A stretch of DNA of 64,000 bases. It comes from Psammoneis japonica. Lineage: Eukaryota. The stretch is from contig QPGO01000088.1 of assembly GCA_008632985.1 (NCBI GenBank), positions 186,001 through 250,000 on the forward strand. Direction: 5' to 3'. This document shows positions 6,001 to 50,166 of the stretch, piece after piece. Made by a program: the position numbers and the translations under genes. The notes under the pieces are model-generated. The model ran no database searches, was not told the origin of the DNA, and saw only the letters and a program-made list of their open reading frames with translations. The stretch's first letter is position 1. Every line of letters begins with the position of its first letter.

Positions 6001-6941
6001 GCGGAAGGTTTCGGAATGCGGTCATGCAAAGTGTCCAAATCGACATGTAAAATGTCAAGGGATGTGTCGACATCTGTCAATTGGTCGCGGATCGCGCGGT
6101 CACAGAGACTGTGCTCGGGGTTGAAAAACTCGGATTCGTCGTGAGTGGCTTGATCCAATGACGTGTCAAGTCGAGCACGAGAGTGCTTGATGATGCGAAA
6201 GTTGGAGCAGAGCTTTTCAGTCTCGAGTTGGAGACGATCAACGCGGGCCTGGGCCTGAGCAAGACGTTCGCTGAGAGCGGCGCGGACGTCAGCTTTGACA
6301 CGAGAGAGACGGAGCTCGTCAGGTGCAGGCAGAGCAGGAGCCGGGGTGCGTTTGACCGAAGCAATGGAGCGACGAAGAGCGCGTTGGGTGCGACGGCGAG
6401 CGGTCTTGGTGCACTTGCGAGTTGGCTGCGAAACAGCATGAAGGGTCCTGGGCAAAGTGACGGGTTTGCCGTTGCGAAGGCCACGAACAGATGAGCGAAC
6501 ACGGCGCTCAAAATCCACAGTGTCGGTAGAGCTGGAGAGCGTGCGGTTGACGGCACGTTGAGAGCGATGGGTGGAGACCTTGTTGCGCCTGGGGGCCTGC
6601 TGCGAGGGCTTGGAAGGCGGCTTGGAGCGCGGCGCAGATGTGCGCTTGATGCAACGGGTGGCAGGGTGGTGCACGCCCTGGGTCACGCGACGAGAACGAC
6701 GACGACGTGCGGCGCACATGCCAGCATGCTGGACAATGGAGCCAGCATCAACATTGTGACAACGGTCACGAGGGTCGGCCATGGGGACGTCATCGACGGA
6801 GCGTCCGTGGACCGTAAAAACTTCATGCGAAGAAAGTGCGTGCGAAGACGGCTTGGGAGAGGAAGCATTGCGAGACGCATGAGCAGCGCTCAGCTTGAAA
6901 GAAGCGGTCGTGTTGGACCAAACCGGAAGTGTTGCAACCAT
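1..6941 (-). pseudogene. gag-pol polyprotein, single in-frame TGA at 3957-3959, many Tyr>Cys/His changes
   Basis: ORF 3957..6995 and the PR/RT/RH motifs share one frame; the ORF track shows no terminated ORF in that frame downstream, so pol appears open to the window edge. DFVGACLQA and KGMCGT replace the usual AYLQA and GxYG. Confidence 0.85.
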
Positions 6942-6973
6942 GATAGGAAATGGGCAAGAACTGGGCACTCGCC

Positions 6974-7135
6974 TGAGAGTGTCTTGGGTGATCAAGTCCG
7001 TGCACTGACAGGAGAGAGCAAGCTAGAGCCTGATCTAGAAACAGCACCTTGCGACAGTGCTTTGTCTAGAAGTTGTGAGAGATTCTGAGCTAGTCTCAGA
7101 ATCGACATGGCTGTCAGAACAGATAGATTCCGACA
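6974..7135 (-). repeat. probable 5' LTR of element A (~162 bp)
   Basis: Starts TGTCGGAA, ends CTCTCA, followed by PBS-like GGCGAGTGCCCAG and then the gag ATG; the partner LTR is outside the window. Confidence 0.55.
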
Positions 7136-7956
7136 GGTTGTTGAAACACTCCGAAAGATCAGTGAATTTCAGTCACAAACCCGACTGAATGTGTGCACTG
7201 TCTTCGAACATGAGGCTCCAATGTAAAAGGGTCATGTGGGATCCCTGTCAACACCGCACAAAGCATTTCTATGTTTCACTTGTATTTTTTTCATGGCACT
7301 CTAGTGATCTCTAGATGAGTGTTTTCTTCTGTGTCTATGAGAATTCTTTCGGAACTTGAATCACCATTGTTCTCCTTGTACGAGTAGACTGCTTCCGACA
7401 TGCCTCCACTGCAGTGCTGCAGTTGCAGTGCCGTCCTTTTCCCTTGAGTTGCTGAGGAAATATTTGTTCCCAATCCTCAGAGGAAGCCACCCTTCAGACT
7501 CCTGTGCTTGATGGCAATTGCACTGGAGTTCTTCACCCGCCAGAGCAACAGCGTAGCAGTAAATCCCTCAGCAGCTGACTGCAGGAAGGGCAACCGAATT
7601 TGAGGCACCTTGGAGCACAGACGAGATGTTGGACTTATGGAGTCCTGGAAAGCCACCATGTTGTAGTGCCTTCAGCATAAGGTCACTATCCATCCATACG
7701 CACCGCAACATAGCCGGAAAGGCGGCGATAAGAAGCCGTACGGCCTCCGTAATCTTCATCGTTGATTTACTGTTTTTGTGATGGAAAAAATGCAGCGAGT
7801 TTATCACGGAGCGGAGCAGCGCGGACAACGTACAGACTTACGGGGGGTCCCCGTTAAGTAGCCGTTGTGACGGTTCCCGCTAAAAAAAAATAGCTGCGAG
7901 CACACAATGACCATCAACCATCAGCATAGCAGTCGACGCTGTTGCCTCTCAACACC

Positions 7957-12860: not shown

Positions 12861-15800
12861 CTCGGTCCCCTCGAAATGTTCCTCTAGAGTAAGCTCACTA
12901 GACACAATTCGACCCTGTGCTAAATCGCGATCTCCAACACTAAATAAACATGATCCTTGAGCATGGTGTAAACCCTCACCAGGGAAGAAAATCACCACCG
13001 CTCCTCCACCACCACTCCTCCACTCAATGCGTGAACTTGTCGTCTGACAGAAAATTTCGTCTGACCGACGACATGATCTTCGTGAACAAATCACTCAGGT
13101 TTGTTTCCGTTCCCTCCTTTGCAGTCCTGACAGTCCCTGCAGTGACAGCTTTGCAGTTACGGTGATGTGCAATGGAGTGATGCTTCTTCTTGAGTGCAGA
13201 CTCAGGAATGGCGGAGCAATTCTTGTGGGCGGCCTCGTTTCACAAAAGACATTTGTTGGTCCCTCAATCGGCACCCCGAACATTCGAAGCTTGTGTTGCA
13301 GTCCTTCAACGAGCTCAATGACACTCTTGAGCACAATGATCTTGGCTCCAAATGCACTTGCCTCCACAGCATTCTGACATTTCGAGCATCGCGTGATGGG
13401 CGCCCGATTGACAAACATCAAGACACCTGTGTGACTGCGGCGATCGGCAACATTGCCAGCATGGTTGGCATCCACAAAACAATGTGTTGACACTGCATTG
13501 CCTCGAGCAGGCAGTGCATTTGTTGGGATGGCTTCCTTGGCAGCTTGGCAAAAGTCATGCCAATCATGCTTCACGAATCGCGATTCATCAATCTTGGGAT
13601 GAGCCGGGTCAAAAGCCACTTGGCGCTTTGGAACCTGTTTGAGACACTCAAAGACATGCAGTGCTTGTTCCAGATGACCAATGCAAGGCAATGCAAGGTG
13701 AGCAGACATTGGCAACACTTCCAAATGAATGTTGACTCTGCCGAGTTCCACAGCCCAAACCAACATGCCAGTCAACTCTTGGCAGCAGTTTGGTCCTTCG
13801 GCATCTAACTCGCCAGTCATGCCCAGCTTGGGCTTGCATCCACTGCTCAGCAGAGCAGTCACCTCACTGGGCAGACATTTTCCTTCTTTGCTAAGTTTGT
13901 CCTCAACATTCTGAATGGTGGCCTTGCAGCACTTCTCTGCAGACATCGACGGACAGATGGTTCCATCGACCAGAGTCATCTTGGAAAGTGCAGCTCCGAG
14001 GCAAGAATCAGGCTCGGCCACTTTGTCACCCTTGAGCTTGAGCTTGGACCTGATGCCATCTATCATCTTTGTTGGCACATGACTGATTGATGACACATCG
14101 TCAACATAAACTGAAGTGCACTTGCAGTGCTTGAATCTGTGGGTTTCACCGCAGGTCGCATCCACACACGTCCGGATCGGCCTTGCTTGGCTTGTGCCCC
14201 AGATCATGCAGCGTCTCCACCAGAAATGCCCTGAATGCCACTCCTGAGCTCTTCAACCCACAGAGCGCTCTGACAACAATCATGACACATCCTTCATCTT
14301 CACCAAATTCTGAACCTGCACAGGTCCAAATCTTCTCCCTGCAAGGGGTGGTGAGGCAGGCATTCTGGATGTTGCATGCAAAAACTTGTGAGTCATTGAG
14401 CACTGCAAGTGCAAGTGCAATTCTTGCTGAGTCCTGCGAGATGACAGAGGAGCAGTTGAGAGTTGCAGGGGCTTCAGTGGTGTGGCCTCCAGCCACCATG
14501 CGAGCTTTGCAATGAAAATTTTCTCCCATCTTGATGTCGAAAATCACATGGCATTTTGCTTCCTGGCAACCAGGCGCCATGTCTTCTAGCTCCCCCTCAT
14601 GTTTCTCAAATGCAGTGCGTGCATTCTTCATCTCCATGCAAATGGCATCCCACCAAAAAGTGTTGCCATTTGCATGATCCAGCTGGATTGCCTCCTTGAT
14701 GCTCTTGGAAATTTGGACAACTCATGTGTCCCCAGCCAACATTTTGACTTGACCTTCGCAATGGAACACTTGTGGGTCCTCATGATGTGAGGAACCCACC
14801 AAGCAAACGCTGCCTCCTCTGAGATCTTGCGCTGGATGGAAAACTTGGTGACTTGGACAGGGAAACTCTCCTTGGCGTCCTTCAAGTCTGTCCATGTCAA
14901 ACTCCCGTCCTTCCATTGCAACAGGAGTTCCCATCCCTTGGTGGTCTTGCACCTCTTCCGAACACCCTGCTCAGTCTCAAAGAATGCGGATTCCGGAATG
15001 TCCCTGTTTGCATGGCAATCAACCATCTCATCAATTGGAACATGCCGGTTCCCGTCTTTGTCAATCTGTGCAATCATGTCAATGGCAATGGAGTTAGCAG
15101 AGAGTGCAGCACTGTGCCCATCAGGGTGCTCTACCTCACACATCCCAGTGTCAAGGATGGGATTGTCATTGGCTGTTCCAACTGGAATGCCATTGGTGTC
15201 TCTTAACCTCTTCATAACGTGAGCAAAGTTGGGGCCATTGTCATCCCTCGGGAGTGCCACTTCCATGTTTGGACAACCCCAATCAGCTGCTTCCGGCAAG
15301 GCTTCCTCATCTTTCTTGTCGTCGTCTTCATCAATTGTTTCTTCTGATGACATGATGCAATCGCACTCATCAAGGAATTCGTCATTGCATCCAAGGCAGT
15401 CCTTCCAATCTTTGGGGCTGATCTTTCGTTCCTCGTCATCGGGGAAATCTTGCTCCCTCAGACGGTGCATGATCTCCTCGTCAAAATGGTCAAACTCAAC
15501 CTTGTTCTCTTGAGTGGTGGCTTCTAAGCTGGTGACTCATTGAACGGATGTCCTCAACATGACACTGCCGGTCTCTGTTAAAACTTAATGTGACATGAGA
15601 CTCCCCATTCTGTGAGATGCACCAAGCCACCTGCCAAGTTTCTCATCACCAAGACCTGCATTCTCCCTGCACCAGACCCAATCATAAAATCCAAAGTCCA
15701 GGTGCTCTGAGACATCCACGGTCTCTCCAAGAATGTTTTCAAGTGGTGCTCCAGCATCCAAATGATGTGATCTAATGCAAGACATGATTTCACAGGTCCG

Positions 15801-17030
15801 TGCAAATCTGCAATCCCACAATTGCCTTGGCACACGCTTCTTGACCATGATGCAGAACCACTTGCATCAAACTTTGCACACAACTCCTTCAGCAGGGTTC
15901 TGGTTGTGTCGATCGGGTTCGATGACATGGTGGTCAATGCCTTCCTTGTGCACCATCTTCATGAACTCAGTGCCCGGTTTTGTCTGCACCTTGGAACCAT
16001 CCATGACAAGCTTCTTGGCAGAACGTCTTGAGAGCTTCTCCTGCTTTGCTCTTCTTGTCCACATGGCAGATCACAGCAAAGTGTTGCTTGTTTGTAAAGA
16101 TCCGGGCATGTTGATTGCCTTCTCACAAAATCACCTTACCGTCAACAGCATTGGTTGCCCACTCACCTTGCAGTCTTGGTGTTGTCATCATGTGCTGGTC
16201 CGCTCGACAGCGTTGACCCATGGGCATTGGCACCAACCTTGTGAGCTTCCAAGCAATTTTCTTGAGTGTGCTTGTTGCTTGCTTGAGTCCAATGCACCAT
16301 TGTTCGCTCAAGTCCACAGCTGTCATGTCACTGTGCTGCTCCTTGGACATGAATGTCTTGCGGGTTGGCGAATCTTCAGGTCCGTCACCAATCATTTCGG
16401 TTGCAGCGACCTCAACTTCTGGTGGTGCATGACTTTACTTTAACTGCTGCTGTCAACCTTGATTGAATTTGATCAACACCACAGATGAATTGCCTGTCTT
16501 TGCAGTCCCCAGACTGAGGGTCACTGCAAGCGGTGTCAGCACTAAATTTGTGTGTCAAATTTGTCTGGGCAGTCTGGATCGTTGCAATTGGCTGAACCAA
16601 TTCCGTTTCCTCCTCCACAGAGCATTGAGGTCCAACAGAATTGAACTTGACATTCTGTGGTTCCCAAGGGTTGATGGGAGGTCATCTGGATCCCAGGGCA
16701 CTCATGCAACTCCTGATCCATGGGAGTGCAAGTTGCCACAACGACATTGGTCCCCACAACCTCAAGTGGCATCATGAGCAAATTGTCCTCCATGAGAACA
16801 TGCAATGGCGAGTTGGGACAGGGGTTGTCCTGGACCTTCACACTAAAATGCCGCAATTGGTTGGGGTCAACCAATGAGTGCTCCATGGAGTCTGCTGTCA
16901 GGACACTCTTGATGGAATCGCATCCCTCATCAAAAGGCAACACATCACATTCTCTTCCAGATTGACCCAAGAGGGTGAAATTACAACCAAAGACAGTGGT
17001 GTCAGCGTGCAAATCCATTTCAATGTCTGC
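12644..17030 (-). mobile_element. degenerate CoDi-like Copia retrotransposon (element B), 5'-truncated
   Basis: Fragments: protease EMDLHADT (~17010), integrase EPDRHNQNPAEG (~15900), RT CHVIFDIKM..KARMVAGGH and YVDD (~14100-14550), RNase H CFVDANHAG..RRSHTG (~13450), ending TNLSDLFTK. Confidence 0.93.
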
Positions 17031-17045
17031 TCTTGATGATCTTTC

Positions 17046-17065
17046 CACACACACACACACACACA
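17046..17065. repeat. (CA)10 microsatellite at the junction of two TE relics
   Basis: Direct reading. Confidence 0.9.
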
Positions 17066-18316
17066 TGGTTTGTTGGTCTTACAAAGAGATGTCATTGTCA
17101 TCCAGCTCCTCCAAGTTGTGCTTCGTGTCGAGTTTCGGGAAAATCGGTTCAAGAATTTCTGCGGGATTCACCGCGCACCCGAATGGAAATTTTGCCGCCA
17201 GTTTTGGTCGCAGATGAGTGTGGTGATTTTGTGTGTTTTCTACACAAGCTCTGGTGTCTATTTGTGCAGCTCTACATCAATCCTCTACACAGCATGCCTT
17301 TCTTTGTGTGACACCTTAAACATGCTGTCTGCCTCAGCCTCCAGCCCCGCCTGGCTTCACTTCTTTAACTCCAATGCTTTCAGGCAACGGCTCACCTCTT
17401 TCAGCTCAGTCTTCAGTTTGTTGACCTCTTGGTGAGCCACAAAGGTGCAAAAGCTTGAGCTGACTTGGCCTCAGTCCCCGCGTTCTTGGCGTTCTCCGTG
17501 AGGGTTGCCACCACAGCTTGGAGAGCAGTGAGTGCTTCAAACCCACAGTTGGTTGCCAGGAATTTGACGCATTCAGATGCCACAGAGGGATGGTTCTTGA
17601 ACCCATGAAGCACATGATGTTCCACCATCACATCCTGAACCCAAAAGACTGCCCAAAAAATTCTGGCTGCACACCGCATCCGGGTCTGTCCCAGCCACAG
17701 ATGTGAACACCCCAGACCAAATCTTGTCAATGTTGTCAAAGATCTGGTGGCCCAAGCCAGCAATCAAAGACCAAGCTTGCTTTTCAGAGAACTTGCTCAG
17801 CTTCACAAGGTTGTTGCAGGTCTTGTCCATGAACTGGATCCAGGCCCAGACAAAGGCTGCCAACTTCGACAGAGCATCGCGGACCACTTGGCTTTCAAAT
17901 GATCCAGCCAGAATCCTTTGATCAGTGTGTCATTGGGACATCAGTCTCGGCTGTGCCCATCTTGTCTAAGATAAAATGCTTGGTCCCGGTGGTGCCCGTC
18001 AACCAATGGTCATGAGTCGGGATTTTGTCAAAGAAAGAAAAGTGAAGCCCAGGGGACTGAGCCGCCTTTGCAGTGCCTGAGTCTTGGACCCGAGGCATGC
18101 CATGCTGGAAGCCAGACAGGGTCCGCACATCCCCTCATTGCTGATCCTCAAATTCATTTGCTTGGCCAGTCCCGCAAGAAAATCATGGAGTGCTGCTGGC
18201 TTGACACCCATGATGTGATCTAAGAGCAAGTTTGCATCAGTTGGGCACCCATGAGCCCTGGATGAGAAGTGGCTGACCATCCACGCCTGGCATTCCTGGA
18301 AGGACAAGACCCCCCC

Positions 18317-18562
18317 TGACAGGATTTGAACAAGATTTCAGTTTGTCCCACACAATTGTGCACGCTCTTGGTTCCATGTGCGTTGTGTGATGCAGTTTGC
18401 TTTTGAGCCACTCGGCTCACAAGAATGACAGCAGTTGTGCCAATGTCAATGACACCAGTCTTTCGGCTCCTGCAGCGGTCTCTGCACCGAGACTCATCTG
18501 CCATCCAGACAGCAGCAAGGAGTTGTTGTTTTCTTCCACCCAGTCATCTTCAATTTCTGTCA
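18317..18562 (+). repeat. 5' LTR of element D
   Basis: TGACAGGATTTG...TTTCTGTCA, colinear with 25566-25811. Confidence 0.95.
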
Positions 18563-21500
18563 GATTGACAGCCTTGCTTGTCTTCATCCATTTTGAGCAT
18601 TCATCATCATCACAAGAAAATTTTGATGACGCGCACCATTCGCGGTGGAAGCAGAGTGTGTGCCTGCCTTTTACACTGCTGGATGTTGGATTGAATTGGT
18701 GCGTTTGGATCTGTCCAATGCTTCTCATTGCTGAACACATTTGTTCAACGGACATTTGTTTGGTCAGGAATTCCCAAACTCTCAGACATCCGAGATTCCG
18801 GAATCCCTGTTCTGCCCTGGTTGGCAGACAGACCAATCCATCCGCACGTGTTCACGTGCCCACGACACAATCATCTGACTCTGGCCTTGCTGCATGCACG
18901 CCAAGTCTGCTGCCTCGTATCTACACTGGATTGCTGGTCTTCTACAGTCCCACAAGGTCTGCCATGAGGATGACTGTGAGAGGAAGCAGTTCATGATTGC
19001 AGCCTGCGTTGGGGTGAGGGTGCATTTCCCATGTTTTTTGGTCCCTCCACAGTGCCAAATTTGGCCGGCCTGATCAGGTCATCCAACCGATGTAAACAAA
19101 AACAGTTCAGAGGTCTTGTTCACCTCCAGCTGGCTTGTCAGCAGGGGTTTTTAACCCGTCACTCCGCTCTCAGGCAACTCAAAGCATCACCAGCTGTGGG
19201 TTCGGACGTGCCGGGGCACAACTCTGCGGACCAGACAGGAAGCTCAGCATTTGGCTGTGAATGGGACATCACAGCATGACAGCTTCTGATTTGTGAGATG
19301 GCTCAAGACATCAAGTCAAGTTTCAAGTCAAGTTTCAAGTTGTTTCAAGCTTGCCTCCAACTCTGGCACCAGTTCCGACACCCACTCAGTTGCAACATGG
19401 TTCTCACCAGGCAGCAACAAATCAATGGTCTCAAGCACATCTTAGGCACTGTTCTGAATCAAACCACAGACAGTCCGTTGCGCTCTGCCCTCAGCATTGA
19501 CAGCACTGACTCATGCCAGGATCTCTTTGCTTTCACTCCAATGCAACTGGATGCCCTGGTTTGCAATGATGGCACCAATCAAACGCCCTTGCCACGTGGT
19601 CACAAAGCACAAAGGGCTGCACTGATTAGTCTGCACATGGTGAAAGTGCGTGGCAGCGCCAATGTTGGCAACAATCCCAACTTGTTCACACAGGAGGAGT
19701 TTGCTGACTGTCATCTCAGTCCCAAGTGCACAGCGTCCCTCTCCATGGGTGCAGCGCCATCTGCTCCCACTCCTGGCTCATTGCCCCCAAAACCACGTGA
19801 CCCCATGCGTGACTTTAAACGAGGCATCAAACATGACCCACTCACCTTTGCGACTCTCAAGTCTGACAAACAGTGGCACACATGGCACACCTCTGTCATC
19901 ACACAGGCCCACTCCCAGGACGTCAACTGCATCCTTGATCCAACGTGCAAGTCCTCCACAGCTGAGGACAAGGCCCTGTTCGATGAACAACTGAAGTGCA
20001 TGTTCACTGCATTCGAACACATCTTGCAGAACGACAAAAACAAGGCACTTGTTCATGAACATGTTGCCTCCTCTGATGCTCAAGCAGTGTGTTGTGACCT
20101 GTCCAAGCATGCCCTTGAATCTGCTCGCACATCCCTGGAGTCCTTGACCCTTCTCACGCACATCACCACTGCTCGCCTTGGTGATGGCACCTGGAAAGGC
20201 TCCACCCATGCCTTCACACTTCACTGGCAGGGGACCAGCTCAAGCATGAAGCTCTCATTCCAAGTGTGGACCACTTCTCTGCTGGCCAGAAATGCACCAT
20301 GCTTGAGAACACCATTCATCCTGTTGAAGAACTTTGTTTGGCAAAGAATCAAGCTGATCAGACTGGCATGCAGAATGGCACGGACCTTTCATGCAAGCAG
20401 CACTGTGGGCTCACACTTTCTGCAGCAGCACAGTGCGACTGTGCATTCAACCCCAAGATGGCCTCCCATGCCCACGCCATGCCATCTGCACCCATGACCT
20501 GGCACCCGACAACCCTGATGATGACACATTCTTTGACATTGACAGTGATGTTGACATCATTCAGGCTTGTGCTGCTCAAGCCCGCGGTTCTTCTCTCACC
20601 AGGGAACAGTGGCACCGCATTTTGCCAGACCACCAGTGCATTTGGGACAGCCTGCCACAGTCCACCAAGGCCATCATCCTTGGATTGTGCCCCCCCTGTT
20701 CCGGCAACTGCCATGAGTCAGAAGCTGTCAGCCTCCATGCTCCATGACCTCCGTCTTTGAAGCAATGGCAATGTTGATTTGTGCGCCAACACTCATGATC
20801 TTGCCTTGACTGCCACACCACCTGATGATGCACGTGACAGGATGGACAACAACCTCATCTGGCACATCTCATGAAGTGCAAGCTTCTGCCGCCTGGCGAT
20901 CTGCAGTGTCTTCTCTTGCCTGACAAGCCGCTCCTCTGCTTTCAATGGTGGGAACCATTCAAGATTCTTTCTGATGACACTCAGAAGATTCTCTGCTGCT
21001 TGAACATGATGTGTTCCACCCGTGATCTGTCCACTCCAAACCTGCATCTTGATCCCCTTGACAAGGAATCTGTTTAACCCACCATCAAATCCCAACACAA
21101 CTCCGAGGATCCACTGGCTTCACCAGATGGAGAGGTGATCAGGATGCCCAAAATGCTGGTCTTTCTTGACCCCGAGGACATCATTGGATGCACCTTCCTC
21201 ATGAAGCAACAAGAGGATGGACAACACCACAGAGCCCATGTCATCAAAGCCGTTGAAGACCATGGCTGGAAAATTGGAGACAACCCTGAACTGGTCAAGT
21301 TCATCAGCTCCGTTGACAATGATGAACATGAGGAAGTCCTTGCCTGCAACAGCATCATGCACCACATTGAGCAAGAAGACAAGGATTCCACCCTCTGGAA
21401 ATTCCAATGCATCCTCTCATGCAAAGGACCATTGAGACCTCACGATCCCTCTTGGAAAGGCTCAAGCTGCAATGTCATGCTTGAATGGGAGAATGGGGGG

Positions 21501-21691
21501 ATCACGTCTGAACCCCTTGCCATCATTGCCAAGGACAATCCCACCACCTGTGCCATTTGTGCACACGAACACGATTTGCTTGAGACCAACAACTGGAAAC
21601 ACTTGCAGACTGTCACTCTGCACCAGAAGAAGCTGTTCTGCATGGCCAATCAAGCCAAGTTGCACTCCTTTTGTGCTGCACCATGATGCAA

Positions 21692-24600
21692 CATCAGAGA
21701 CCCGCAGCAAAGGCCATGATTCACAAATCATCGAACCCCAACATCTCATGGTGTGCACACGCGCGCAAACATTGGTCGACCCCACTCCAGATTGAAATCG
21801 ACATCACTTGTCGGGAGTGCAACATTTTTGTTTGTTTTCACCATCCTGATCGGCACATTTTGCACTTGTTGCTCCTGGCAGACGTGTTTCATTCAATGTG
21901 CATTTGTTGACTTGTGTTCCAACATAAAAAGCAACATGGCAGAATTGCTCCTTTGTCTCTGAATGATTGCACTTCATTCCAACTGAAACATGTTCATTTT
22001 CACATTGTGTGTGCATTTGCGCCGAAAGTACGGCATTTCCGTCTTCATGACGGATGTCAATCATTCAGCGAAATTTTCACCTTTTTCTGTTGTTCCTCTT
22101 GCAGCATTCATCCGGCCAATCGTGTGCAGGACATTTGTCCCTTCCACTTGTGATCTACGGATCCAATCCCCTGTGCATTTTGCAATCACTGCAGAACAGC
22201 GAAAGCAGTGCGACGAGGATTCCGTGGATTCTCTGCGCAAGACTGCATGGGTTCTCCACAAATCAACATTTTAAAACCTGCTGCGTGCATCATCAAGAGC
22301 TGCCAAACAACTCGAACCCACCATGACAATGAAGTGCGACGGTGTTGATGCTCATTCTGCCTTTTATGAAGCATGCATGGTCACCAAGAAACAACAACCA
22401 ACAGCAAAAAAAAGAACAGGCTCCTTCCTTTTGATGCAAGCAGCAAGTTCGTGATTGATTGTTGACGTGGCTGATCAATGAATTTGCAGCAAAACATGCC
22501 TTCAGCATGGGACACGCCGCTTCTGATGACATGAGTTCATTGTCATGGTTGTCTCACATGACTTGGTGATTTTCACTCCACGAGACTCGGAAATTGACCT
22601 GAATGTGCCGCATCATGGTCATCGTGGTCGAAGACTCGAGAGGTTGGTGAAAGCACATTTTCCTCGCACATGAGCCACGCAGAAATCACGCAGAAAAATG
22701 GCTCTTGTTTTTGGACAGAGGATCTGTTTAAATTCGAGTGCAGATTTACAGCCAAACAAAAAAACATTCGGGAAGCACTCTTTTCAGGTGAGCAAAAAAA
22801 CACAAAGAGGGGAAAAATGCAACCGTCGCTCCGCAAGACTCAAAAGACAATGCAAAAAAGGGAGGGCCGGCTTGCAACGGCGTGCAAAGCAGTGCGACCA
22901 TGGCACGGTGAGTGCAGGCAAACACACAACACAAAAAACAACAAAGAATTGTTGCATCTGTGCCTCAGAGACAGACCAATCTAAGCAAGTGGATGGCTGA
23001 TGATCAAAAGGCCGGCAGAGACATCATCAAGGTGAGAGATCGCATCAAAGAAGAGGCTTTTTTGAGCATCGCACTCACACTTTGTGCAACAAAACAGGCA
23101 CGCTGCACAAAAACAAGTTTTGCTGCAAGTTTTGCGGGGGGATTGATGTTGCAGATGGCCGATGATCAAAAGTCTGGTGGAGACATCTTCAAGGCAAGAG
23201 ATCTCGTGTCAAAGAAGAAGCTTTTTTGAGAGCGCCGCACTTGCGCTTGGCGCAAAATGACCAGACAAAACAGGCAAGCCGCACAAAGACAAGCTTCACC
23301 ACAAGCCTCATTGGAGAATTAATGTTGCACAAGATTCAAAACTCACACCAGCAGCATGGCCATTTCCAACGACACAGGGGCGGGACAAGACGAGAGAGCG
23401 ACTCTCAGCTCTGATGGGTGTTGTGAACGAGCTTGAGAGCATCGCCAACAAGAGGCTCATGCAAAAGGAGGACATTGCAAAGAAGAGAAAGTGTGCAAGA
23501 TGACTCAAGCACTTTGTGCCAAGCAACTCGGGGCCGGCAAAGGAGGACGCAGGAGGAGACGATGCACGGCACCAAGGAAGAGCAGCAAGGGAGGGGATGG
23601 TTGCCGAGAGCCAACAAGTTCTTCAAGGAGCCGGTCATGGAGATCAAACGCAACATCATGAGTGATCAACTTGGTCAATGGGAAGATCCGTGTAGAATGA
23701 TTTCAGGCAGCCACAGAAAGCAAGCGGGGGAGGACTTCACGGCTTGGGTGACAAGGGGGAGACCCCACATGGCGAGCTGTGCCAAGGTCGGCAAGCTGGA
23801 GCTGATGGTGGCTTGGCAGATAAAAACCCATGATTGTAATTTCGTTGTTGTCCAACTCGAGCATTCTTACATTGTAGAAGCTGCACTTTAGACGGCCACT
23901 TGAACATTTCGTGTGGATGTAAACTTCTTGAATTTCACCGTGCTGATTGGATGCACCTCCCTGGATTCGAACCCACGGACATTTGTTGGAGGTGCGCGAC
24001 ATTTTGTTCGAACCAACGGACATTTGTTGGTTGGTGTGGACATTTGTTTGTTGTCAATCACGACCATTTGTGGTAAATGGTCGTGATTCGTGTTAACACG
24101 GGATCCACGGGTGCACCCGGGAATTGCGGGATGAAAGGGGAAAGGGGCAAATGGGAATGTTGGGAAAGTGAGGGGCCATTGTTGTGCCTTGAGGGTCCCT
24201 TTGGTGAGCTGAACACGCACATTTCTCATCTGACCATCACAGGTCCGTCTTGTGGGGGGTGTCAAAATATTGTGACGGGGCGCGTCTTGAGGATCAATCG
24301 TCACATGGTGTGCATGGCTGTGAAGGTCACACAAAGTTGAAAAACGCACGTTCGCGTTTTTCATTTGTGTCGTTTTCAGATTCATGTGATGTCAATGGTC
24401 AAACATGTGACACACAAAATCATTTCTTGAGACCGCGTCTGCTCTCACAATTTGAGGACCCCCGAAAGGACGGACCTGTGAGGGTCAAATTGGCAATGAG
24501 CGTGCTTGGCTGACCAAAGGGTCCCTCAAGGTAAAATGACAGCATGTCACTTTTCCACCATTCACATTTGCCCCTTTCCCCTTTCATCCCACATTTCACA

Positions 24601-24745
24601 GATTCCCCTGGTGCATCCGCGGATCCCGTGTTAAATGGCCATGATTCATCACAAATGAACACATGCACGGGCTCTCACATGTTTTGTCACCAACAATGTC
24701 CATTGGCATGACCACAAGACAATTCACGGAAACGGGCCTCTGATG
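21692..24745. mobile_element. non-autonomous TIR DNA transposon (E) inserted in pol of D; 2-bp AA TSD (CMC/EnSpm-like)
   Basis: TIR CATCAGAGACCCG / CGGGCCTCTGATG (12/13); AA on both sides; removal restores host P-x-C-K-C-G-C-E-V-P (canonical PxYKYGYEVP); GGACATTTGTT repeats at 23977-24056. Confidence 0.8.
24097..24630. mobile_element. piggyBac-like MITE (534 bp)
   Basis: TTAA at 24093-24096 and 24631-24634; termini CACGGGATCC / GGATCCCGTG; imperfect inverted repeats about 200 bp long. Confidence 0.85.
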
Positions 24746-25129
24746 AAGTGTGGGTGTGAAGTGCCCCGGGACTGCAAGCATGCCTTGGCCCTTGATGAGC
24801 GCAACAGCAACCACAAGTGGGGAGATGCAACAGACCTCAAGGTGACTCAGCCAGGTGAGTGCAAGGTTCTCTTAAACTGCGGACACTGCAAGGACTCCAG
24901 TGCCCAAAAGCAGGGCACAAGAAGACTGGGGTGCATCTCATCCATGATGTCAGACATGACGGATGGCACAAGGTGCGACTTGTTGCTGATGGACACCTCA
25001 CAGAGGCACCCATTGACTGTCCGCACATCACTTTGCATTGCCTTGGCATCCCCATTCATGAAAAATGTTGCATGTTCAGGGACAACAAGTTGGTTGTGGA
25101 CAGCGCCACTGTCCTGGACTCCAAGCCAC

Positions 25130-25505
25130 ACAAGCAACACACCACCCTCTTGTTCCCACTGTGTGTGTGTGTGAGGCAATTGCCTCCAGTTTCCTCAAGT
25201 TTCATTTCATCAAAGGTTCCCGCAACCCAGCTGACATCCTCAGCAAGCACTGGGGCCACTCCCAGATCTGGGCCCTCCTTCATCCTCCAATGTTTTGGAA
25301 CTTTGATCCTGAGGCACTCCAAGTTACACAAGCGACACACCACCCTCTTGTTCCACTGTGTGTGTGAGGTGATTGCCTCCAGTTTCCTCAAGTTTCATTT
25401 CATCAAAGGTTCCCGCAACTGAGCTGACATCCTCAGCAAGCACTGGGGCCACTCCCAGAGCTGGACCCTCCTTCATCATCTCATGTTTTTGAACTTCGAT
25501 CCCAA
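25130..25505 (+). repeat. tandem duplication (~190 bp) of RNase H C-terminus within D
   Basis: HK(Q/R)HTTLLF..IASSFLKFHFIKGSRN..ADILSKHWGHSQ occurs twice. Confidence 0.9.
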
Positions 25506-25565
25506 GGCTTTCAACCAATCTGACCTTGAATTTGTTGCTGTTGACCCCTCAAGCAAACTGGGGAG

Positions 25566-25811
25566 TGACAGGATTTGAACAAGATTTTAGTTTGTCACAC
25601 ATGATTGTGTGCGCTCTTGGCTCTGCGTGCGTCACGCGCTGCAGTTTGCTTTCAAGCCACTTGACTCACAAGAACAATGACAGCAGTGCCGACATCAACA
25701 ACACCAGTCTTTCGGCTCCTGTGACGGCCTCTGCATGGAGACTCATCTGCCATTTAGACAGCAGCAAGGAGTTGTTGTTTTCTTCCACCCAGTCATCTTC
25801 AATTTCTGTCA
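25566..25811 (+). repeat. 3' LTR of element D
   Basis: Same length and termini as 18317-18562, preceded by PPT. Confidence 0.95.
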
Positions 25812-28800
25812 ACCCCCATGCCTGAAAACTTTGCTGCCATCTTGCCCAACTTGGCTTTTGGCTCACTGATGTGTTGATCAAGCACCACCAACCACTGTTC
25901 AACCAACAAGCCAGCAGCCCAGCTCCCACAGGCTGCACCCGATCCTGACCAAGGTTGGTTCTCGAGGTGCTGTGCTCTGTTCACAAGCTGATTGGATGTG
26001 CGCAGTGCACCTGACCTCAAGGAGTCAAGGTCCACTTTAGCCGCGAGGCTGCAGACCTGGTTCTGCACACTGTGGACACTGACTTGAACCACCCCAGCAA
26101 GTCTGTTAGATCTTTCATGCAGATTGCTTTCCATTCTGGCCATTTCAGTGGTGAGATCAGGGCCTCCCCCAACAGGACTTGAATTGGATGCTGACAGATT
26201 TGCCAAAGCACCCCAAATGGTCAGTGCTTCCAACCGCTGATCAAATTCCAGTGGAGGCGAACCCAAAGAAGCATCAAGCTGGTCAAGCCCACAACTGAGC
26301 ATGTCAATCTGGGTGGGGCATCTGCAGCAGCTTCCCACTTGATCAGAACATCAGCGGAAACAAAGGACCCATCTGAGATGGGTTGGCAGAACCCCATGTC
26401 CGGAGACTTGAGGACAGTCACCATGCCATTGGTTGCAAGATCCTTCTTGGGTCTCTTGTGCTTGACCTTGCAATTGGAGCCTCTTTTGAAGCAAAATGTC
26501 ATGTCTCCACCAACAATTCCCAAACAATGCGATGTGTTGGTGCCTTCCATCCAAACAACACAAAAACAAGGTGCGTCAGACAAAGGAGATGCACCTTCCT
26601 CGTTCTTTTCTGACACACCTCATGGCACTCCCCCATCTCTTGCAGCAAAGAAATCAACACATGGAGCATGATTGTGGGCAGCTCAAAAGCGGCATCCGGG
26701 CTTGGGGAATTTACCTCTCCAAGCTCGGCACATTCAACGTCCAAGTGCGGATGGTTGCCGGTCATTCCACCACCAAGGCTTGAGCCTCCAAGGAAAGGAC
26801 TTGAGCTCAGGTCACCTCCCTGATGACCCACCCCAGAGGGCAGGGCCCGAGACATGGGCAACAAAGAAGAGCAAGACAAGAACAGCAAAATTGCGTTAGA
26901 TTTGAGGTTGCAACAGGCCAGATTGACAAAGTCAGCATCATCAAGGCCAGAGGCAAAGTGATCAGACATGGCAAAAAGATGACTTTTCTAGAGCTTTGGC
27001 ATGGTCCAGTCACGTTGATCAAGGTTCCTGTCTCGACAAAGCTGGAAAAAGTGAAAGAGTAAAATGCCAACAGTTTGACTGGTCACCAGCACACAAGATT
27101 GTGACCGGTCATCTTGGCTTGGAGGCACCCTCCTCCAAGTCAGGCAGCCAATTCAAGGATGGGGCACATTGACCAGTCTTGCTGCATGTGGTTCATCTCC
27201 ATCTAATCTTGGACACAAGGAGGGATGGATGAAAGCACAAAACATGTGTGGAAATCACTGCACAGACAGACCGCCGCTGTGATTCTTGCTGCAAGTGGCA
27301 ACACCCAAAGTGCTGCAGGCACAATCCGGCAGGGCCCATGAACACAGTGCCGGCACAGCAGGGCCCAATGTAAAATGGAAAAGCCAAAGTGCTTTTCAAA
27401 AGGTCCCCGATGAAAGCATGACGGAACCTCCCTGAGTGAGGCCAGGCACTGCATTTTTCAGATCACTTGTCCGTCAATTTTTCATTTGGGGGACCTCCCT
27501 CCCAAATTGAAATGTTTCAATCCAATGCTTCATGTGAGTTTCACAAGGTGAAAGACACCATGACCCACCATTTGCCATCAGATGGAGCAAACCAAACAAT
27601 TTGGTGTTGATGTCACATGCGGCAGTGGTGCAAATGATGACATGGACTGCCAACTCAAAGATGGTGGATGGAAAAGTGCAGAAAATGCAAAAATGCACCC
27701 CCCCCCCACCAAAACCACACACCGACACAATGCTGCACTGTGCTGAGTGCAGTTAATTTGTGAATTGAAAGAACACCAAGGGCTCTGTTCTCCACACTCA
27801 AGAGACTTGAGAATGATTTGTTTGCAACATTTTCTCACTGGAAAGGAAGATGTTTTAGTGAGAGAACAGCATGGACTGAAGGTGCACCCAGTCCAGCGGG
27901 CGCTCAGTTGATGGAGGTGCGCATTGGCAAATGCAACCAGGAGACAATGGATGATGAATGTGAGCAGGTGTGCACAATGGACATGTTGCTGGGAGCAGGA
28001 AACAGCAAACACAATGTTTCAAATCAGTTCTGCTCACACAACAAGGCAGCATGGAAAAGTTTTACATTGTTGTTTGATTGATTTTGAGGGGCATCTGGCT
28101 AGCTGATGACAGGTTCCTTGTCTTGCTGACTGCAAGGATTGGTTGGAATTTACCCCAAATTCTAAACAAGCCTCAAGATCACCTTGTCACATGAGAGCAT
28201 CCTTGCTCCTGCTGAGAATGCACCATTTCAATGCAGTCACAAATGCAATTTTGCTGCCTCAGATGAAAGCCTGACTGCCATCATTCCTCTGCAAACATCA
28301 CAGAACAAACACGGGAAAGGTGGAATTTGGGCAAGCATGTTGACTCCAGAACTGACATCAATGCCAAGTCAAGACAGCACGGCCACTTCAGAATGTTGTT
28401 CTCAAAAGGATCACAAAGTTTTGTGGAACGTCTGGCTGGTCCTCTGCTTCTTCAACATCTGGCACCTTTTCAGCGCCATTGACAAAGGAGTCTTGTCAGT
28501 TTTGAGCAAGAGTGCTCTGGATTCTGTCAAATGAACATCCATGGCTTTCCATGGAGCTGACACTTGCAGCATCATTGAGGTCTCTTGGGTTCCCAAGAGG
28601 CGTTGACAAATTCCCACTTGCCGTGCCGCCTGCGCACAGTGTGCCACCAGCCGACAGAGAAGCGCCATCTTCGCAGATGAGACTCTCTGGACACAAGCCA
28701 CCTCCCTGATCTTTGCTTTCCAAAATCATTGACAGCATGGTCATTGGATCCATTGATGCTGATGGGTTTCACCCCGTTCTCCTTTGTCTTGGAGGAGGAC

Positions 28801-29894
28801 AAGGTGCTCCAACCTTGTGCACCTCCTTCTGTTTTGCACTGTTTTGGTGCACTGACCATGAGGCAGCTCCAAGCAATGCAAAGGCAAGAACAGCAACAAC
28901 AACGGCAGTGATTGCCGCTGCATCCAGTCCATCACCCAAACCGGCGCTGTTGAGCGATGAGCGTTGAAGGCACTCCAATGGTGGGTGATTTTTGTGTGTT
29001 TTCTCCACTGCGGTTCCAAGTAAAGTGCGCATGGCATTTAGTGTAGGGAGAATGGAAAAGCGCACTTTCACCGGCACGAAAGAGCCAAATTCCAAAATAA
29101 GTGGTCCCCGACGAAAGCAAGACGGAACCTCCCTGAGCGAGGCGGGCGGGCACCGCATGACATCAGCAGAGGTTCGCACACTCTACACAAAATGTGATAG
29201 TGAAACACCGTTGGTCTGCCCGGCAGTTTTCTTCTCTCTTTTGGACTGCGTCGTTGCACAAAAATCAAAAATCTGTTACATCACGATGATGCACAATAAT
29301 CGCCACAACGGAATCATCAGTGATTGGTGCGGGACCGAATGATGGCCATGGGTGAAGGAGAAGTGTAAAGAAACCCATCTGTGGAGCGTCGACACCGTCT
29401 GTTTCAGGCTGGTACTCCGTTCCATAGAGAAGATTCGAGCACTTCTCTTTCGCTTCATCATTCGAGATGGGACTAACGATGTCGGCGGAGCGACAAAAAG
29501 AGGGAACTGCTTCAGTTTCAATTTGTTAACCCGCACGACGCGATTGAATCCTTCTTTGTCCTTAATGCACCTTGAGCTCGATTCCAATGCTGATGGTTGT
29601 CTCTTGTCAATGGACTACGATGACTGTCGTAGCGCTTGCGACGTCGTTGCATACTTTGATGTCGTCGTTTTTGTTTTTGTACCACGCTGCTCCATTTCTT
29701 TTGGGTGTCTTCTCTTCAGCATTCCTTCCTCGCCTGGGTTCACGCTGGGGTATTCGTTACGGTATGCCCCAAGGCGCTTGTCGTCGATACGTGCTGGAAT
29801 ATTTCGGCGCTGATCGCCTGCGTATTTTTCCTATGGATTCGTCGTGTTGGAGTAAGAGCAGAATGCCGTTGACAAAGCCACTGGGGGGTTATTT

Positions 29895-32800
29895 GTGCCA
29901 TCTCAAGCAGTCTCTAATGAATTTACATGTACGGCCGAAGACGGATATGTGATCGTCACAGATGCAATACCGACACCGTCTCCAACACCAGTACCTTCAC
30001 AATCTCCAAGTGCCAGTCCAGCTCCGAGTACCACACCCTCCCAAGTACCAAGTGTAAGTCCGGCTCCAAGTGGTAGTCCATCACATTCAATAACTCCGCC
30101 GAGTAGCAGCCCCGCACTCAGTATGTCGCCGAGTAGTCCCCCGAGTGGCAGTCCAGTACCAAGCGCTAGTCCAAGTACAGCTCCATCGCAGCCAGCCAAC
30201 TGCACGCTTGAGGTACGTACATTAAAAAAGTGTGAGCATAAATTGTGAATTTTGTGAAAGGCTGACGCGTGTTTCTCGCTTGTTGTCATTTTGTTACAGG
30301 TTGAAATGGAATTTCTCATTGAGCACCCAGACCCCCAGGTCAGCGGATACACCAGCTTTACCTTTTCATACAATTGGAAGACCTGTGATGAAGCTGTAAA
30401 CTCTCAAGGAGATTCCAACAAGCGTATCGACGTATATGATCTCAATGGTGTCGATCCTCCAGCTGCTAACGAAAGTGCCTTCATAACCTGCAAGGGTTCG
30501 AGCAATGAGACACTCTATAACAGCACAGTTGACAGTGGCGATATATTTGAGTTGAATGGAACTGTCGACAGTGTCGAGTGCATCATATTCCGTGACATGG
30601 ATCAGGATGTAGTATATCAAACGATTAAGTTCGTGTCGTACAGTGAAAACTTCTTGCTCAAAGACGAGTTTGGAAGCTTGGTCCTGGAGAACGGCAGCAA
30701 TGGCCAAGGAGACTCGAAACAATGCCTTCAACAGGTGAAATCCGTCATTGACATAACTAATGCCGGAAGTACAACGCTGAACGTTACCAAAGCGGTGCAA
30801 AATGTGACGCAAGCCCCCCTCGGCTCTTCCAGTCTCACAAGTTTTCTTGATTCGATTGTTCCGACGGAAATGGTGGCTGGTGAAATGCGCACGATTGAAG
30901 TTCCGTACACAATTGATATTTGCATTGAAGCAAATTACATCGTGAGCGCTGAACTCGAAGCTGAAACAGTCTCTAATGAATTTACGTGTACGACCGAAGA
31001 CGGATATGTAATCGTCACAGATGCCATACCGACACCGTCTCCAACGCCAGTACCTTCACAATCGCCAAGTGCGAGTCCAGCACCGAGTACCACGCCCTCT
31101 GAGCTACCAAGTGCAAGTCTAGCCCCCAGTGGTAGTCCATCACACTCCACAACTCCGCCGAGTAGCAGCCCAGCACCGAGTAAGTCTCCGAGTAGTTCCC
31201 CGAGTGGCAGTCCAGCGCCAAGCGCCTCGCCTTCGGTAGAGCCCAGTAGCAGCCCTGCACCCAGTGACTTGCCATCAGCAAAACCAAGCAGCTGTCCAGC
31301 TCCGAGTACTACACCGACAGTTATGCCACGTATACCCCCAGCTCCTCCAACGTAGAACACCGAGTACAAGCCCTGCCCCCAGCTCGGCACCAAGCGACTA
31401 TCCCAGCAAAAGTCCAGCACCAGCTCAACTCCAAGTCAAGAACCATCAGCTAGCCCGGCTCCGAGCAACGAACCAACTCACACGACTCCACCACCAAGTC
31501 GTAGTCCTGCACCGAGTGAGACTTCCAGTGTATCTCCAAGTAATAGTCCGGCGCCAAGTAATTCGCCGAGTGAACAGCCCAGTGCAAGCACCGCCCCAAG
31601 CAACTCGCCAACGGATACGACGCCGCCACCAAGTGACCGGCTCCAGCGAAACCCCAGTTTAGCCCGATAGCAGCCGCACCAAGTCATCACCATCCTCGAC
31701 CTAGAGCAGTCCTGCACGAGTGATTCGCCGAGTGCATCGCCTACCGCAAGCTCTGCCCCAAGCACCTCACCAACGCATACGACGCCACCACCAAGTGTGA
31801 GCCCGGCTCCCAGCGACACACCCAGTTCAGCCCCAAGCAGCAGCCCGGCACCAAGCTCAACACCATCATCTCAACCTAGTACCAGTCCAGCGCCCAGTGA
31901 CTTGCTATCAGCAAAACCAAGCAGCAGTCCAGCTCCGAGTACTACACCGATAGTTATGCCACGTATACCCCCAGCTCCTCCGACGAGTGCTCCATCAAGC
32001 AGTCCTGCTCCAAGTGAAGCTCCGAGTAGAACACCGAGTACAAGCCCTGCCCCCGCTCGGCACCAAGCGACTCTCCCAGCAAAAGTCCAGCACAAAGCTC
32101 AACTCCAAGTCAAGAACCATCAGCTAGCCCGGCTCCGAGCAACGAACCAACTCACACGACTCCATCACCAAGTCGTAGTCCTGCACCGAGTGAGACTCCC
32201 AGTGTATCTCCAAGTAATAGTCCGGCGCCAAGTAATTCGCCGAGTCAACAGCCCAGTGCAAGCCTCGCCCCAAGCAACTCGCCAACGGATACGCCGCCGC
32301 CACCAAGTGTGAGTCCTGCTCCCAGTGCAGCTCCAAGCGCAAGCCCGGCCCCAAGCTTATCGCCTAGAACGGCTCCAAGTAAGAGTCCCTCTCCAAGTCA
32401 GTCACCATCAATGGCGCCAACACAAGATGTTTGCGACCTAGAAGTAAGCTTTGCAACGTTTCTTTGTTTTACTGCATGTGCCATGGTATTGTCCCCAGCT
32501 CAATAATGTATGTTCTGCTCCCAAAACGCGGCCACACAGGTTGAATTGTTGGAGTGCGTAGATAACAACGGCACCCAATGCGGGGAAATTCCACATCCGG
32601 ATTGTCAATGCAGAGGATACTCCAATCTGACGTGTACGTACAACTGGAGACCTTGTGAAAACTCGACACATTCACAAGGTGCAAATTGTGAATGCAGGGA
32701 TGTGTATCTTGAGAAAAACGCAACGCCTCCTGCCGGAGATGAAACTGTCCACATTAGCTGCTCCGACGCAAGTCCCACCAATGACACTCTGTTCAGTGGT

Positions 32801-38410: not shown

Positions 38411-38499
38411 GTGCGGCATTTGTTGCAAACGATCGCTTGGCAGAACGAAACTTCGAAGTAGAGATTCCCTGTTCTTGTTGTTGTTGGAATCACTGTCCA

Positions 38500-50108: not shown

Positions 50109-50166
50109 GAACCTATCGCTGCTTTTTTAAAGAGCCTCATGGACCGTTAGACTCTAGACGTAGTAC

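Follow-up and report, generated by a model that had tools for sequence, protein, structure and literature searches.

Introduction

Hypermutation directed at TpA has been reported for the chlorarachniophyte Bigelowiella natans, in which 231 of 302 mutations found in 15 mutation-accumulation lines lay within an integrated nucleocytoplasmic large DNA virus (NCLDV) and a virophage (Mettrop et al., bioRxiv 10.64898/2026.01.13.699255). According to this preprint, 230 of the 231 de novo mutations in the viral inserts were A>G or T>C, all of them at TpA and in only some of the lines, and the de novo rate was about 1000-fold over background. It further describes 324 TpA-poor coding sequences (CDS) enriched in reverse transcriptase (RT) and DDE domains as well as 124 clusters of TpA-poor windows rich in CpA and TpG, and it proposes an ADAT2-like deaminase, an ADAT2-like protein with an asparagine linked to DNA editing having been found in B. 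natans. Its main text makes no mention of diatoms, stramenopiles or the wider sequence context (bioRxiv 10.64898/2026.01.13.699255). A second related system comes from dinoflagellates, where a TET/JBP homologue is described to produce 5-hydroxymethyluracil (5hmU) that is enriched in repeats and silences transposable elements (TEs) (PMC11572971). Here we analyze a stretch of 64,000 nucleotides from the diatom Psammoneis japonica (assembly GCA_008632985.1, contig QPGO01000088.1, positions 186,001 to 250,000; referred to as the window), in which four blocks whose recognizable content consists of long terminal repeat (LTR) retrotransposons have lost nearly all TpA in favor of TpG and CpA.

The original prediction for this locus, made from the letters of the window alone, had interpreted the pattern as a candidate genome defense acting as an inverse of repeat-induced point mutation (RIP) and knew of no description of such a process. 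The latter no longer applies, because the same signature was reported in 2026 for B. natans (bioRxiv 10.64898/2026.01.13.699255). A literature search for TpA loss in TEs of diatoms revealed no description, with most subscription journals lying outside its coverage.

Results

TpA is almost absent from four blocks of the window

The ratio of observed to expected TpA (O/E) was calculated per kilobase across the window, and bins of 200 bp were used to locate the edges. Values between 0.00 and 0.19 were obtained for the kilobases at 1-7, 13-29, 35-46 and 59-61 kb; the remaining full kilobases gave 0.38 to 1.06 and the mixed one at 58-59 kb gave 0.26. This defines four TpA-poor blocks at 1-7.0, 13.0-29.0, 35.2-45.8 and 58.4-60.9 kb (blocks 1 to 4), which sum up to about 36.1 of the 64 kb. 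The pooled blocks (36,103 bp) contain 152 TA with an O/E of 0.07, compared with 970 TA and an O/E of 0.57 in the pooled flanks (26,504 bp). At the O/E of the flanks 1236 TA would be expected in the blocks; about 88% of the expected TpA is missing, and the level is 8-fold under that of the flanks. The claim that TpA nearly vanishes over kilobases of TE sequence and is used normally in the genes was thereby confirmed. The block coordinates given with it were correct overall, except that the start of the third block has to be moved from 36.4 to about 35.2 kb.

The products expected from transitions at TpA are enriched in the blocks, with an O/E of 1.66 versus 1.21 for TpG and 1.67 versus 1.14 for CpA (blocks versus flanks). 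TpA and CpG (0.47 versus 0.92) are the only depleted dinucleotides. The twelve dinucleotides besides TpA, CpG, TpG and CpA deviate by at most 0.12 from the flank values, among them ApA with 1.18 versus 1.13, ApT with 0.90 versus 0.91, and TpT, which is likewise unchanged. The G+C content is about 50% both inside and outside of the blocks. TG and CA are about equally frequent in blocks 2 to 4, which indicates that both strands were affected.

The edges of the blocks are sharp. The number of TA per 200-bp bin changes between 0-1 and 5-10 at 7.0, 13.0, 29.0, 45.8, 58.4 and 60.9 kb, each time within about 200 bp. Only the onset of block 3 at about 35.2 kb is preceded by a graded zone, which starts at 34.6 kb (positions 34600-35200) inside a repeat array not derived from TEs.

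For B. natans, windows were classified by a Rho value for TpA of at most 0.43 and for CpA+TpG of at least 1.52 (bioRxiv 10.64898/2026.01.13.699255). All full kilobases within the blocks of P. japonica fall below this TpA limit (0.00-0.19), and both TG and CA reach at least 1.5 in most kilobases of blocks 2 to 4; block 1 (TG 1.09-1.46, CA 1.24-1.50) would fall short of the CpA+TpG limit.

The TpA-free state is derived

Four peptides had been quoted as evidence for the replacement of conserved Copia tyrosines, and all of them were found, KCGCEVPRDC at 24746-24775 (+ strand) and NCSSV, QNACL and ALCGLK at 14251-14457 (- strand). For ALCGLK the replacement could be verified, as all 21 aligned relatives have the Tyr of ALYGLK, which is a Cys here; for KCGCEVPRDC no covering relative turned up. 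The RT fragment at 14149-14721 has no Tyr at all among 191 amino acids and contains 13 Cys and 7 His.

A broader comparison was made with the pol frame of block 1. Its amino acid composition includes 0.53% Tyr, 3.9% Cys and 4.9% His, compared with 2.4-4.1% Tyr and 1.1-1.8% Cys in five pol relatives (29-45% identity). At the 18 columns with a Tyr consensus among these five, block 1 shows Y twice, H seven times, C three times, F five times and W once; other conserved residues are mostly retained at 60-76%, with Ile, Val, Met, Thr, Asn and Gln at 32-50%. An alignment with 83 relatives of at least 700 amino acids contains 16 columns with a Tyr majority, which in block 1 read Y at one, C at five, H at three, F at six and W at one position. 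The Tyr of the KGMYGL motif, found in 76 of 76 relatives, is a Cys in block 1, and the seven columns with Tyr in at least two of the three closest relatives are H, C, H, C, H, F and W. The Phe residues found at former Tyr columns date back to the ancestor of the sub-lineage, and the Tyr retained in the YTDD box of block 1 is a Phe in two of the three closest relatives. The exchanges Y>H (3-7) and Y>C (2-5) are about equally common, so that here too both strands were affected.

No Tyr-poor protein was detected among 154 relatives from a library of 1.84 billion proteins (minimum 1.95%, median 3.4%, versus 0.53% here), and none of 79 related Copia DNA loci in metagenomes was TpA-poor (O/E 0.45-1.00). 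Since the relatives have normal Tyr and TpA, the Copia family is not intrinsically TA-free. The TpA-free state is derived and not ancestral, with the polarity TA>TG/CA; the reading of the TpA loss as a derived mutation is supported both by the conserved tyrosines that are now Cys or His and by the normal relatives.

Purifying selection during the loss of TA was considered as well and rejected. Within the frame of 2,340 codons in block 1, the TAs that remain are distributed over the codon phases as 15/10/16 and show no phase bias, the YTDD Tyr is not conserved and the Phe columns are ancestral.

TpA was lost in place next to block 3

A Ser/Pro-rich repeat array of non-TE origin with a DUF7467 head extends from 29.9 to 36.3 kb, and its right end runs into block 3. 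Two kilobase duplicates within the array (31.1-32.1 and 33.4-34.4 kb) are 85% identical over 1 kb and have kept their TA. Copy C of the array (34.46-35.43 kb) hardly differs from copy B (32.90-33.91 kb) at its left end and becomes progressively poorer in TA, keeping the TA sites of copy B at 3 of 3, 8 of 13, 4 of 10 and 0 of 6 positions in four successive zones. A TA in copy B faces TG or CA in copy C 12 times and the reverse is found 2 times (binomial p = 0.013); 12 of the 17 TA losses in copy C led to TG or CA. When three copies were compared, TpA-type changes accounted for 9 of 34 changes in the lineage of copy C, versus 1 of 37 and 2 of 62 in lineages A and B. The stretch of the array that follows copy C has one TA in 1101 bp. 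Over 0.6-1.7 kb the depletion thus continues in an array that is not a TE and that has kept TA in its other copies. A comparison of the 177-bp array units by column points in the same direction: at five usable TA columns the units inside the block have CA in 14, TG in 3, other dinucleotides in 3 and TA in 0 of 20 cells, a result that is suggestive, the units being of low complexity and their alignment soft.

We conclude that the change occurred in place on the DNA, on both strands. As copies A and B are 85% identical and yet unmutated, repetition alone is not the trigger; the position beside the island is. The term repeat-restricted, under which the phenomenon had been introduced, therefore has to be modified. 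The loss is confined to TE-rich domains and the adjacent genes are normal, but the restriction is one of domains, because repeats outside (the array copies and duplicates of a phosphoribulokinase gene) keep TA and a non-TE array was invaded.

Paralogous pairs of sequences were additionally compared inside and outside of the blocks. The block pairs differ chiefly by transitions and contain 48 adjacent CA/TG double differences per 2085 aligned bp, versus 3 per 2818 bp in the flanks; the tally comprises six block pairs, two of which overlap each other, and excludes the phosphoribulokinase pair. Double differences of this kind are expected from independent hits on one ancestral TA. A decayed CpG also yields them, and the result is supportive rather than decisive.

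Two further features of the array were observed. Higher-order Ser/Pro-rich repeats, which have a period of 177-178 bp, come after its DUF7467 domain (30291-31355). Between 35201-35430 and 33690-33914, CpGs lost in the depleted copy C became CpA nine times and TpG once, an asymmetry that is absent from the TpA changes.

TpA loss is separable from CpG decay

The five sequences for which both values were determined differ widely in CpG and little in TpA. Block 1 has a CpG O/E of 1.02 and a TpA O/E of 0.12. An insertion at 21674-24745, nested in an older element of block 2, has values of 0.69 and 0.10, and its host element (18317-25811) of 0.32 and 0.05; block 3 has 0.22 and 0.03 and block 4 has 0.12 and 0.05. 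Block 1 and the younger insertion demonstrate that the loss of TpA can be separated from the decay of CpG. The loss of TpA appears to have been essentially complete ahead of that of CpG and to have been faster by a wide margin, which fits the rate excess of about 1000-fold measured in B. natans.

Deamination of 5-methylcytosine (5mC) was rejected as the cause, because it cannot remove TpA and is absent from block 1; in blocks 2 to 4 it is a second, separate process. The statement that neither RIP nor 5mC decay explains the pattern was correct, as TpA was lost rather than gained and CpG is intact in block 1.

Read data, other genomic copies and surviving TAs

For the analysis of read data, contigs that had been built by Logan from run X1, which may be the sample behind the assembly, were aligned to the window. 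Stretches of 503, 671, 344, 328, 1864 and 943 bp in these contigs agree with the window without a single difference, at a word depth of 30-36. The TA-free sequence is thus reproduced by exact matches in read data, and the suspicion of an assembly artefact was not borne out. A second run, X2, was uninformative, with contigs in only 2 of 30 bins.

Other genomic copies are represented by 4,009 contigs, 851 of them with at least 99%, 1085 with 95-99% and 2073 with 90-95% identity. They differ from the window at 370 places, of which 301 are transitions. It had been argued that family members equally free of TpA would speak against a mutational origin. This is the case in part, since the close genomic copies appear to be mostly TA-free, whereas the wider relatives have normal Tyr and TpA. 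The common TA-free state of the paralogues can be read in two ways: either much of the loss occurred before the last amplification, with TA-free elements still moving, or the outcome TG or CA is set by the context.

The TAs that survive in the blocks are unevenly distributed with respect to their 3' neighbor. Counted on each strand and relative to the flanks, their density is 0.225 for TAA, 0.14 for TAG, 0.089 for TAC and 0.034 for TAT (likelihood-ratio chi-square 112, 3 degrees of freedom). We regard this bias as tentative.

Contents of the blocks and neighboring genes

All recognizable content of the blocks is LTR retrotransposon, assigned to Ty1/Copia by RVT_2 matches, gag Zn knuckles and TG..CA LTRs; most of blocks 2 to 4 is too decayed for classification. 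Block 1 (1-7000, - strand) is a Copia-type element truncated by the start of the window and was recognized by Pfam matches to RVT_2 and Pol_BBD, by translation and by tblastn of relatives. Its frame of 2,340 codons has one stop at 3957-3959, which separates pol (3-3956, 1,318 codons) from a gag-like open reading frame (ORF) with two Zn knuckles (3960-7022). About 400 N-terminal codons of the latter have no recognizable domain. Block 1 also shows a strong strand bias, its + strand having a GC skew of +0.22 to +0.28 and its coding strand being C-rich, far beyond what TpA loss could yield. Between 1 and 7.1 kb both strands together contain 38 TAA or TAG versus 180 TGA. As TA>TG/CA creates no in-frame stop (TAA>TGA replaces a stop by a stop) and removes TAA and TAG, long ORFs in the blocks are not evidence of intactness.

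Block 2 (13000-29000), the region of the original prediction, is a nest of degraded LTR retrotransposons with TpA O/E of 0.00-0.14 and CpG O/E of 0.25-0.76 per kilobase. It contains a Copia pol fragment at 13072-14721 (- strand; RVT_2 and blastx), whose RT part lies at 14149-14721, and an LTR retrotransposon at 18317-25811 (+ strand) with LTRs of 246 bp at 18317-18562 and 25566-25811, TG..CA termini and a purine tract 5' of the 3' LTR. The sequences that flank this element are CCCCC and ACCCC. Its LTRs are 84.7% identical and differ by 29 transitions and 3 transversions, with 8 adjacent CA/TG double differences. The nested insertion of 3,072 bp (21674-24745) is younger than this host element, as read-derived contigs contain the joint 21673>24746, which stems from other genomic copies without the insert. 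At 18010-21615 and 25222-25822 the read-derived contigs have a summed word depth of 4,000-62,000, where pieces present once have about 32; this places the element at 18.3-25.8 kb in a family that is highly abundant in the genome.

In block 3 (35200-45800) the first 1.1 kb or so is TA-free repeat array and the remainder is unrecognizable repeat DNA. Block 4 (58400-60900) is a short island poor in TA and CpG between an ERG4/ERG24 gene and a phosphoribulokinase (PRK) gene. A Pfam search of 134 stop-to-stop ORFs of block 2 gave one real domain (RVT_2), and in blocks 3 and 4 none of the 21 ORFs of at least 100 amino acids (out of 111 of at least 70) had a match. Searches with Copia relatives by tblastn and blastx gave matches only in block 1 and in the fragment at 13.1-14.7 kb.

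The region between blocks 3 and 4 (45900-58300) served as a control. It carries ordinary host genes (PNTB, Tic22-like, EDR2_C, FAD_binding_4 and ERG4/ERG24) with a TpA O/E of 0.45-0.68. The products of the genes at 46-58 and 61-64 kb are a PNT transhydrogenase, a Tic22-like and an EDR2_C protein, a FAD-binding oxidase, an ERG4/ERG24 reductase and PRK. The PRK is 74-82% identical over the aligned part to PRKs of diatoms, among them Helicotheca, Ditylum, Minutocellus and Phaeodactylum, the closest among the 120 matches listed, which shows the host to be a diatom. Two PRK copies at 61175-62395 and about 63082-63979 are adjacent, lie on the same strand according to BLAST and are 79.7% identical over about 900 bp. 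The second copy is located at the window edge, and its frame is apparently broken between ORF calls on the + and - strands. Between 8600 and 10330 tandem repeats (offset of about 420 bp, 80-86% identical) and 86-bp repeats (8639-9000) fall within two ORFs without Pfam match (7942-9243 and 9240-10007); the TpA O/E is 0.38 and thus slightly under the gene level.

Discussion

Probable hypermutation of silenced transposon islands

The pattern in the window is probably the result of hypermutation from TpA to TpG or CpA that acts at the level of DNA and is aimed at silenced TE islands of this diatom, with the genes spared. The change would be A:T>G:C at TpA of either strand inside the islands; it would run near saturation and much faster than the decay of methyl-CpG, and it could spread for about 1 kb into the DNA adjoining an island. 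Such a process is likely to be enzymatic and to be guided by the chromatin or silenced state. As TA>TG/CA never makes stop codons and destroys TAA and TAG, mutated elements would keep long ORFs, and damage would arise through Tyr>Cys/His and other missense exchanges and through the loss of signals that contain TA. Two chemistries are candidates, deamination of the adenine that follows T by a TadA- or ADAT2-like enzyme and oxidation of the thymine that precedes A by a TET/JBP-like enzyme. Since the reverse complement of TpA is again TpA, the sequence does not tell which base was hit. Deamination is an attractive option, as TadA and ADAT2/3 naturally act on A34 of tRNA, which is preceded by U33.

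The thymine route assumes the same targeted process, with the T of TpA oxidized to 5hmU or 5-formyluracil by an enzyme that marks TEs, so that it mispairs with G. A change of T to C ahead of A would leave the same data as one of A to G behind T, and this route fits the sequence equally well. 5hmU in dinoflagellates favors TpA. There a TET/JBP enzyme marks TEs, as mentioned above (PMC11572971). In contrast, the literature examined contains no evidence of 5hmU in diatoms, and for B. natans the authors found a candidate of the ADAT2 type with the DNA-editing Asn (bioRxiv 10.64898/2026.01.13.699255). We consider oxidation of thymine rather unlikely.

It is also conceivable that the composition was inherited, that is, TpA was lost in master elements and TA-free elements kept transposing without any mutation at this locus. 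Several observations agree with this scenario or limit the case for hypermutation at the locus itself. The 35 in-block differences from other copies that were examined, drawn from the best-supported 40 of the 370 places, comprise 18 of the CpG type, 2 of the TpA type and 15 others. The other copies with at least 90% identity seem to be largely TA-free too, so that a large part of the loss may be older than the last amplification and may have been inherited. Block 1 combines its 2,340-codon frame and single stop with undecayed CpG, and elements changed by TA>TG/CA, which makes no stops, could have remained coding. The evidence for a change in place comes from one boundary with small counts, and the CA/TG doubles of the LTR pair may stem from CpG, the two sources being inseparable without an outgroup. 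Furthermore, the 3'-neighbor bias assumes that the blocks once had the tetranucleotide make-up of the flanks, and the direction TG or CA that it predicts was found in 8 of 12 non-tied polarized events by a hand tally, which is not significant. On the other side, inheritance does not account for the graded depletion over 0.6-1.7 kb of a non-TE array whose other copies retain TA. The Tyr found in 76 of 76 relatives was lost and the codon phases of the residual TAs show no sign of purifying selection. Master elements would still require a mutator specific for TpA, which makes this a rival on timing and not on cause. As a full explanation it is unlikely.

Editing coupled to retrotransposition would act before integration, either on the RNA of the element through an ADAR-like enzyme or on its cDNA through a deaminase of single-stranded DNA, as APOBEC3 does for C. 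This idea is attractive in so far as everything recognizable in the blocks is LTR retrotransposon. A 5' U is preferred by ADARs, which are described in metazoan lineages (bioRxiv 10.64898/2026.01.13.699255). Both strands were changed about equally, however, as judged from Y>H (3-7) and Y>C (2-5), and the change extends into adjoining array DNA that is not a TE. Moreover, ADARs prefer a G on the 3' side, whereas the TAs in the blocks survived best with G or A as the next base and worst with T or C, which is the opposite trend. ADAR-type hyper-editing of RNA fixed by retrotransposition was rejected, as Y>H is as common as Y>C and the flanking array was changed; pre-integration editing in general is very improbable.

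An artefact, with TA really present and miscalled during sequencing or polishing because A or T carries heavy modification in TE DNA, can hardly account for the data. In its favor, no platform is recorded for run X1, which may represent the sample behind the assembly. But contigs built from reads match stretches of 328-1864 bp exactly at a depth of 30-36, which requires accurate reads, platforms based on a polymerase should read N6-methyladenine as A and 5hmU as T, and the graded edge, the residual TAs and the mixed outcomes TG and CA resemble mutation and not a miscall of a motif.

Selection or a general bias (avoidance of UpA, GC-biased gene conversion or repair errors of the Pol-eta type at WA motifs) has next to no probability: TpA is mildly under-represented everywhere (O/E 0.57 in the flanks), but the depletion lies 8-fold lower, spans LTRs and unrecognizable DNA on both strands and ends within about 200 bp, G+C is about 50% inside and outside, and ApA, ApT and TpT are unchanged. 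Mutagenesis of the Pol-eta type would produce A>G at ApA as well as at TpA, and the unchanged ApA (1.18 versus 1.13) thus disfavors this alternative, which the original prediction had offered. Photoproducts of ultraviolet light at TA were set aside, mainly because they would not be expected to give kilobase domains with 200-bp edges.

Significance

The probable hypermutation of silenced islands in P. japonica would extend the findings in B. natans by a second, distant algal lineage, by LTR retrotransposons as targets, by near-saturation, by the separation from CpG decay, by the graded spill-over and by a tentative 3'-neighbor bias. If the process of B. natans also runs in diatoms, it would be a widespread genome defense of major marine primary producers, with a mutation spectrum opposite to that of RIP, APOBEC and 5mC decay. 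Several diatom species can be transformed, and a search for the enzyme could become practical in them. For genome annotation it would follow that profile searches miss hypermutated elements, which have lost Tyr although their ORFs remain long, as in block 2 with one Pfam domain per 134 ORFs. The TpA O/E could serve as a cheap marker of silenced domains, and genes adjoining TE islands may suffer collateral mutation.

A broader generalization, plausible and yet slightly too bold to adopt, is that distant algae of the Stramenopila-Alveolata-Rhizaria (SAR) group, namely Rhizaria and diatoms, have in common a TpA-specific DNA-editing defense that is aimed at chromatin and not at repetition. It would erase essentially every TpA of a retrotransposon before CpG is damaged and would spread to neighboring genes. 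This enzymatic counterpart of RIP would silence without stop codons and may use an uncharacterized DNA adenine deaminase or thymine oxidase.

Comparison with known systems

With fungal RIP the process shares transition hypermutation of TE copies, specificity for a dinucleotide and the ability to leak into neighboring sequences. RIP consists of C>T changes, for the most part at CpA, by which TpA and stop codons are generated, and is triggered by duplication; in the window, in contrast, TpA is destroyed, stops do not arise and repeats outside of the blocks are untouched. RIP was rejected as an explanation, since TpA was lost and not gained and duplicated sequences outside of the blocks retain TA. 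The deamination of 5mC in methylated TEs has the same products, TpG and CpA, and occurs together with the TpA loss in three of the four blocks (CpG O/E 0.12-0.4). Unlike the process described here it cannot remove TpA, and block 1 lost its TpA with CpG intact.

Editing of retroelements by ADAR or APOBEC likewise gives clusters of deaminase-type transitions, with a 5' U favored by ADARs. It acts on RNA or cDNA before integration and on one strand, whereas here both strands and the flanking DNA were affected. To our knowledge, no base of the 5hmU type is known in diatoms. The TET/JBP system of dinoflagellates is comparable in that it, too, comes from a SAR alga and puts a chemical mark on thymine in TE DNA, but 5hmU is described there as an epigenetic mark and not as a mutator (PMC11572971).

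The closest resemblance is to B. natans as described in the preprint (bioRxiv 10.64898/2026.01.13.699255): the change is exclusively TpA>TpG/CpA on both strands, it is confined to domains of foreign origin, and it leaves a footprint poor in TpA and rich in CpA and TpG, which in B. natans includes CDS rich in RT and DDE domains. The host there is a chlorarachniophyte of the Rhizaria with NCLDV and virophage inserts, and here it is a diatom of the Stramenopila with islands of LTR retrotransposons; the TpA O/E of 0.45 reported for the NCLDV region compares with a near-saturated 0.07. The rate in B. natans was caught de novo, while the window provides the footprint together with the graded spill-over and the comparison with CpG decay. 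Taken together, the observation is confirmed and far beyond chance, and the idea of an A:T>G:C mutator that is targeted and works at TpA stands and has a precedent in B. natans. By analogy, the islands of P. japonica appear to have been changed by the same kind of process as the integrated viral DNA of that alga.

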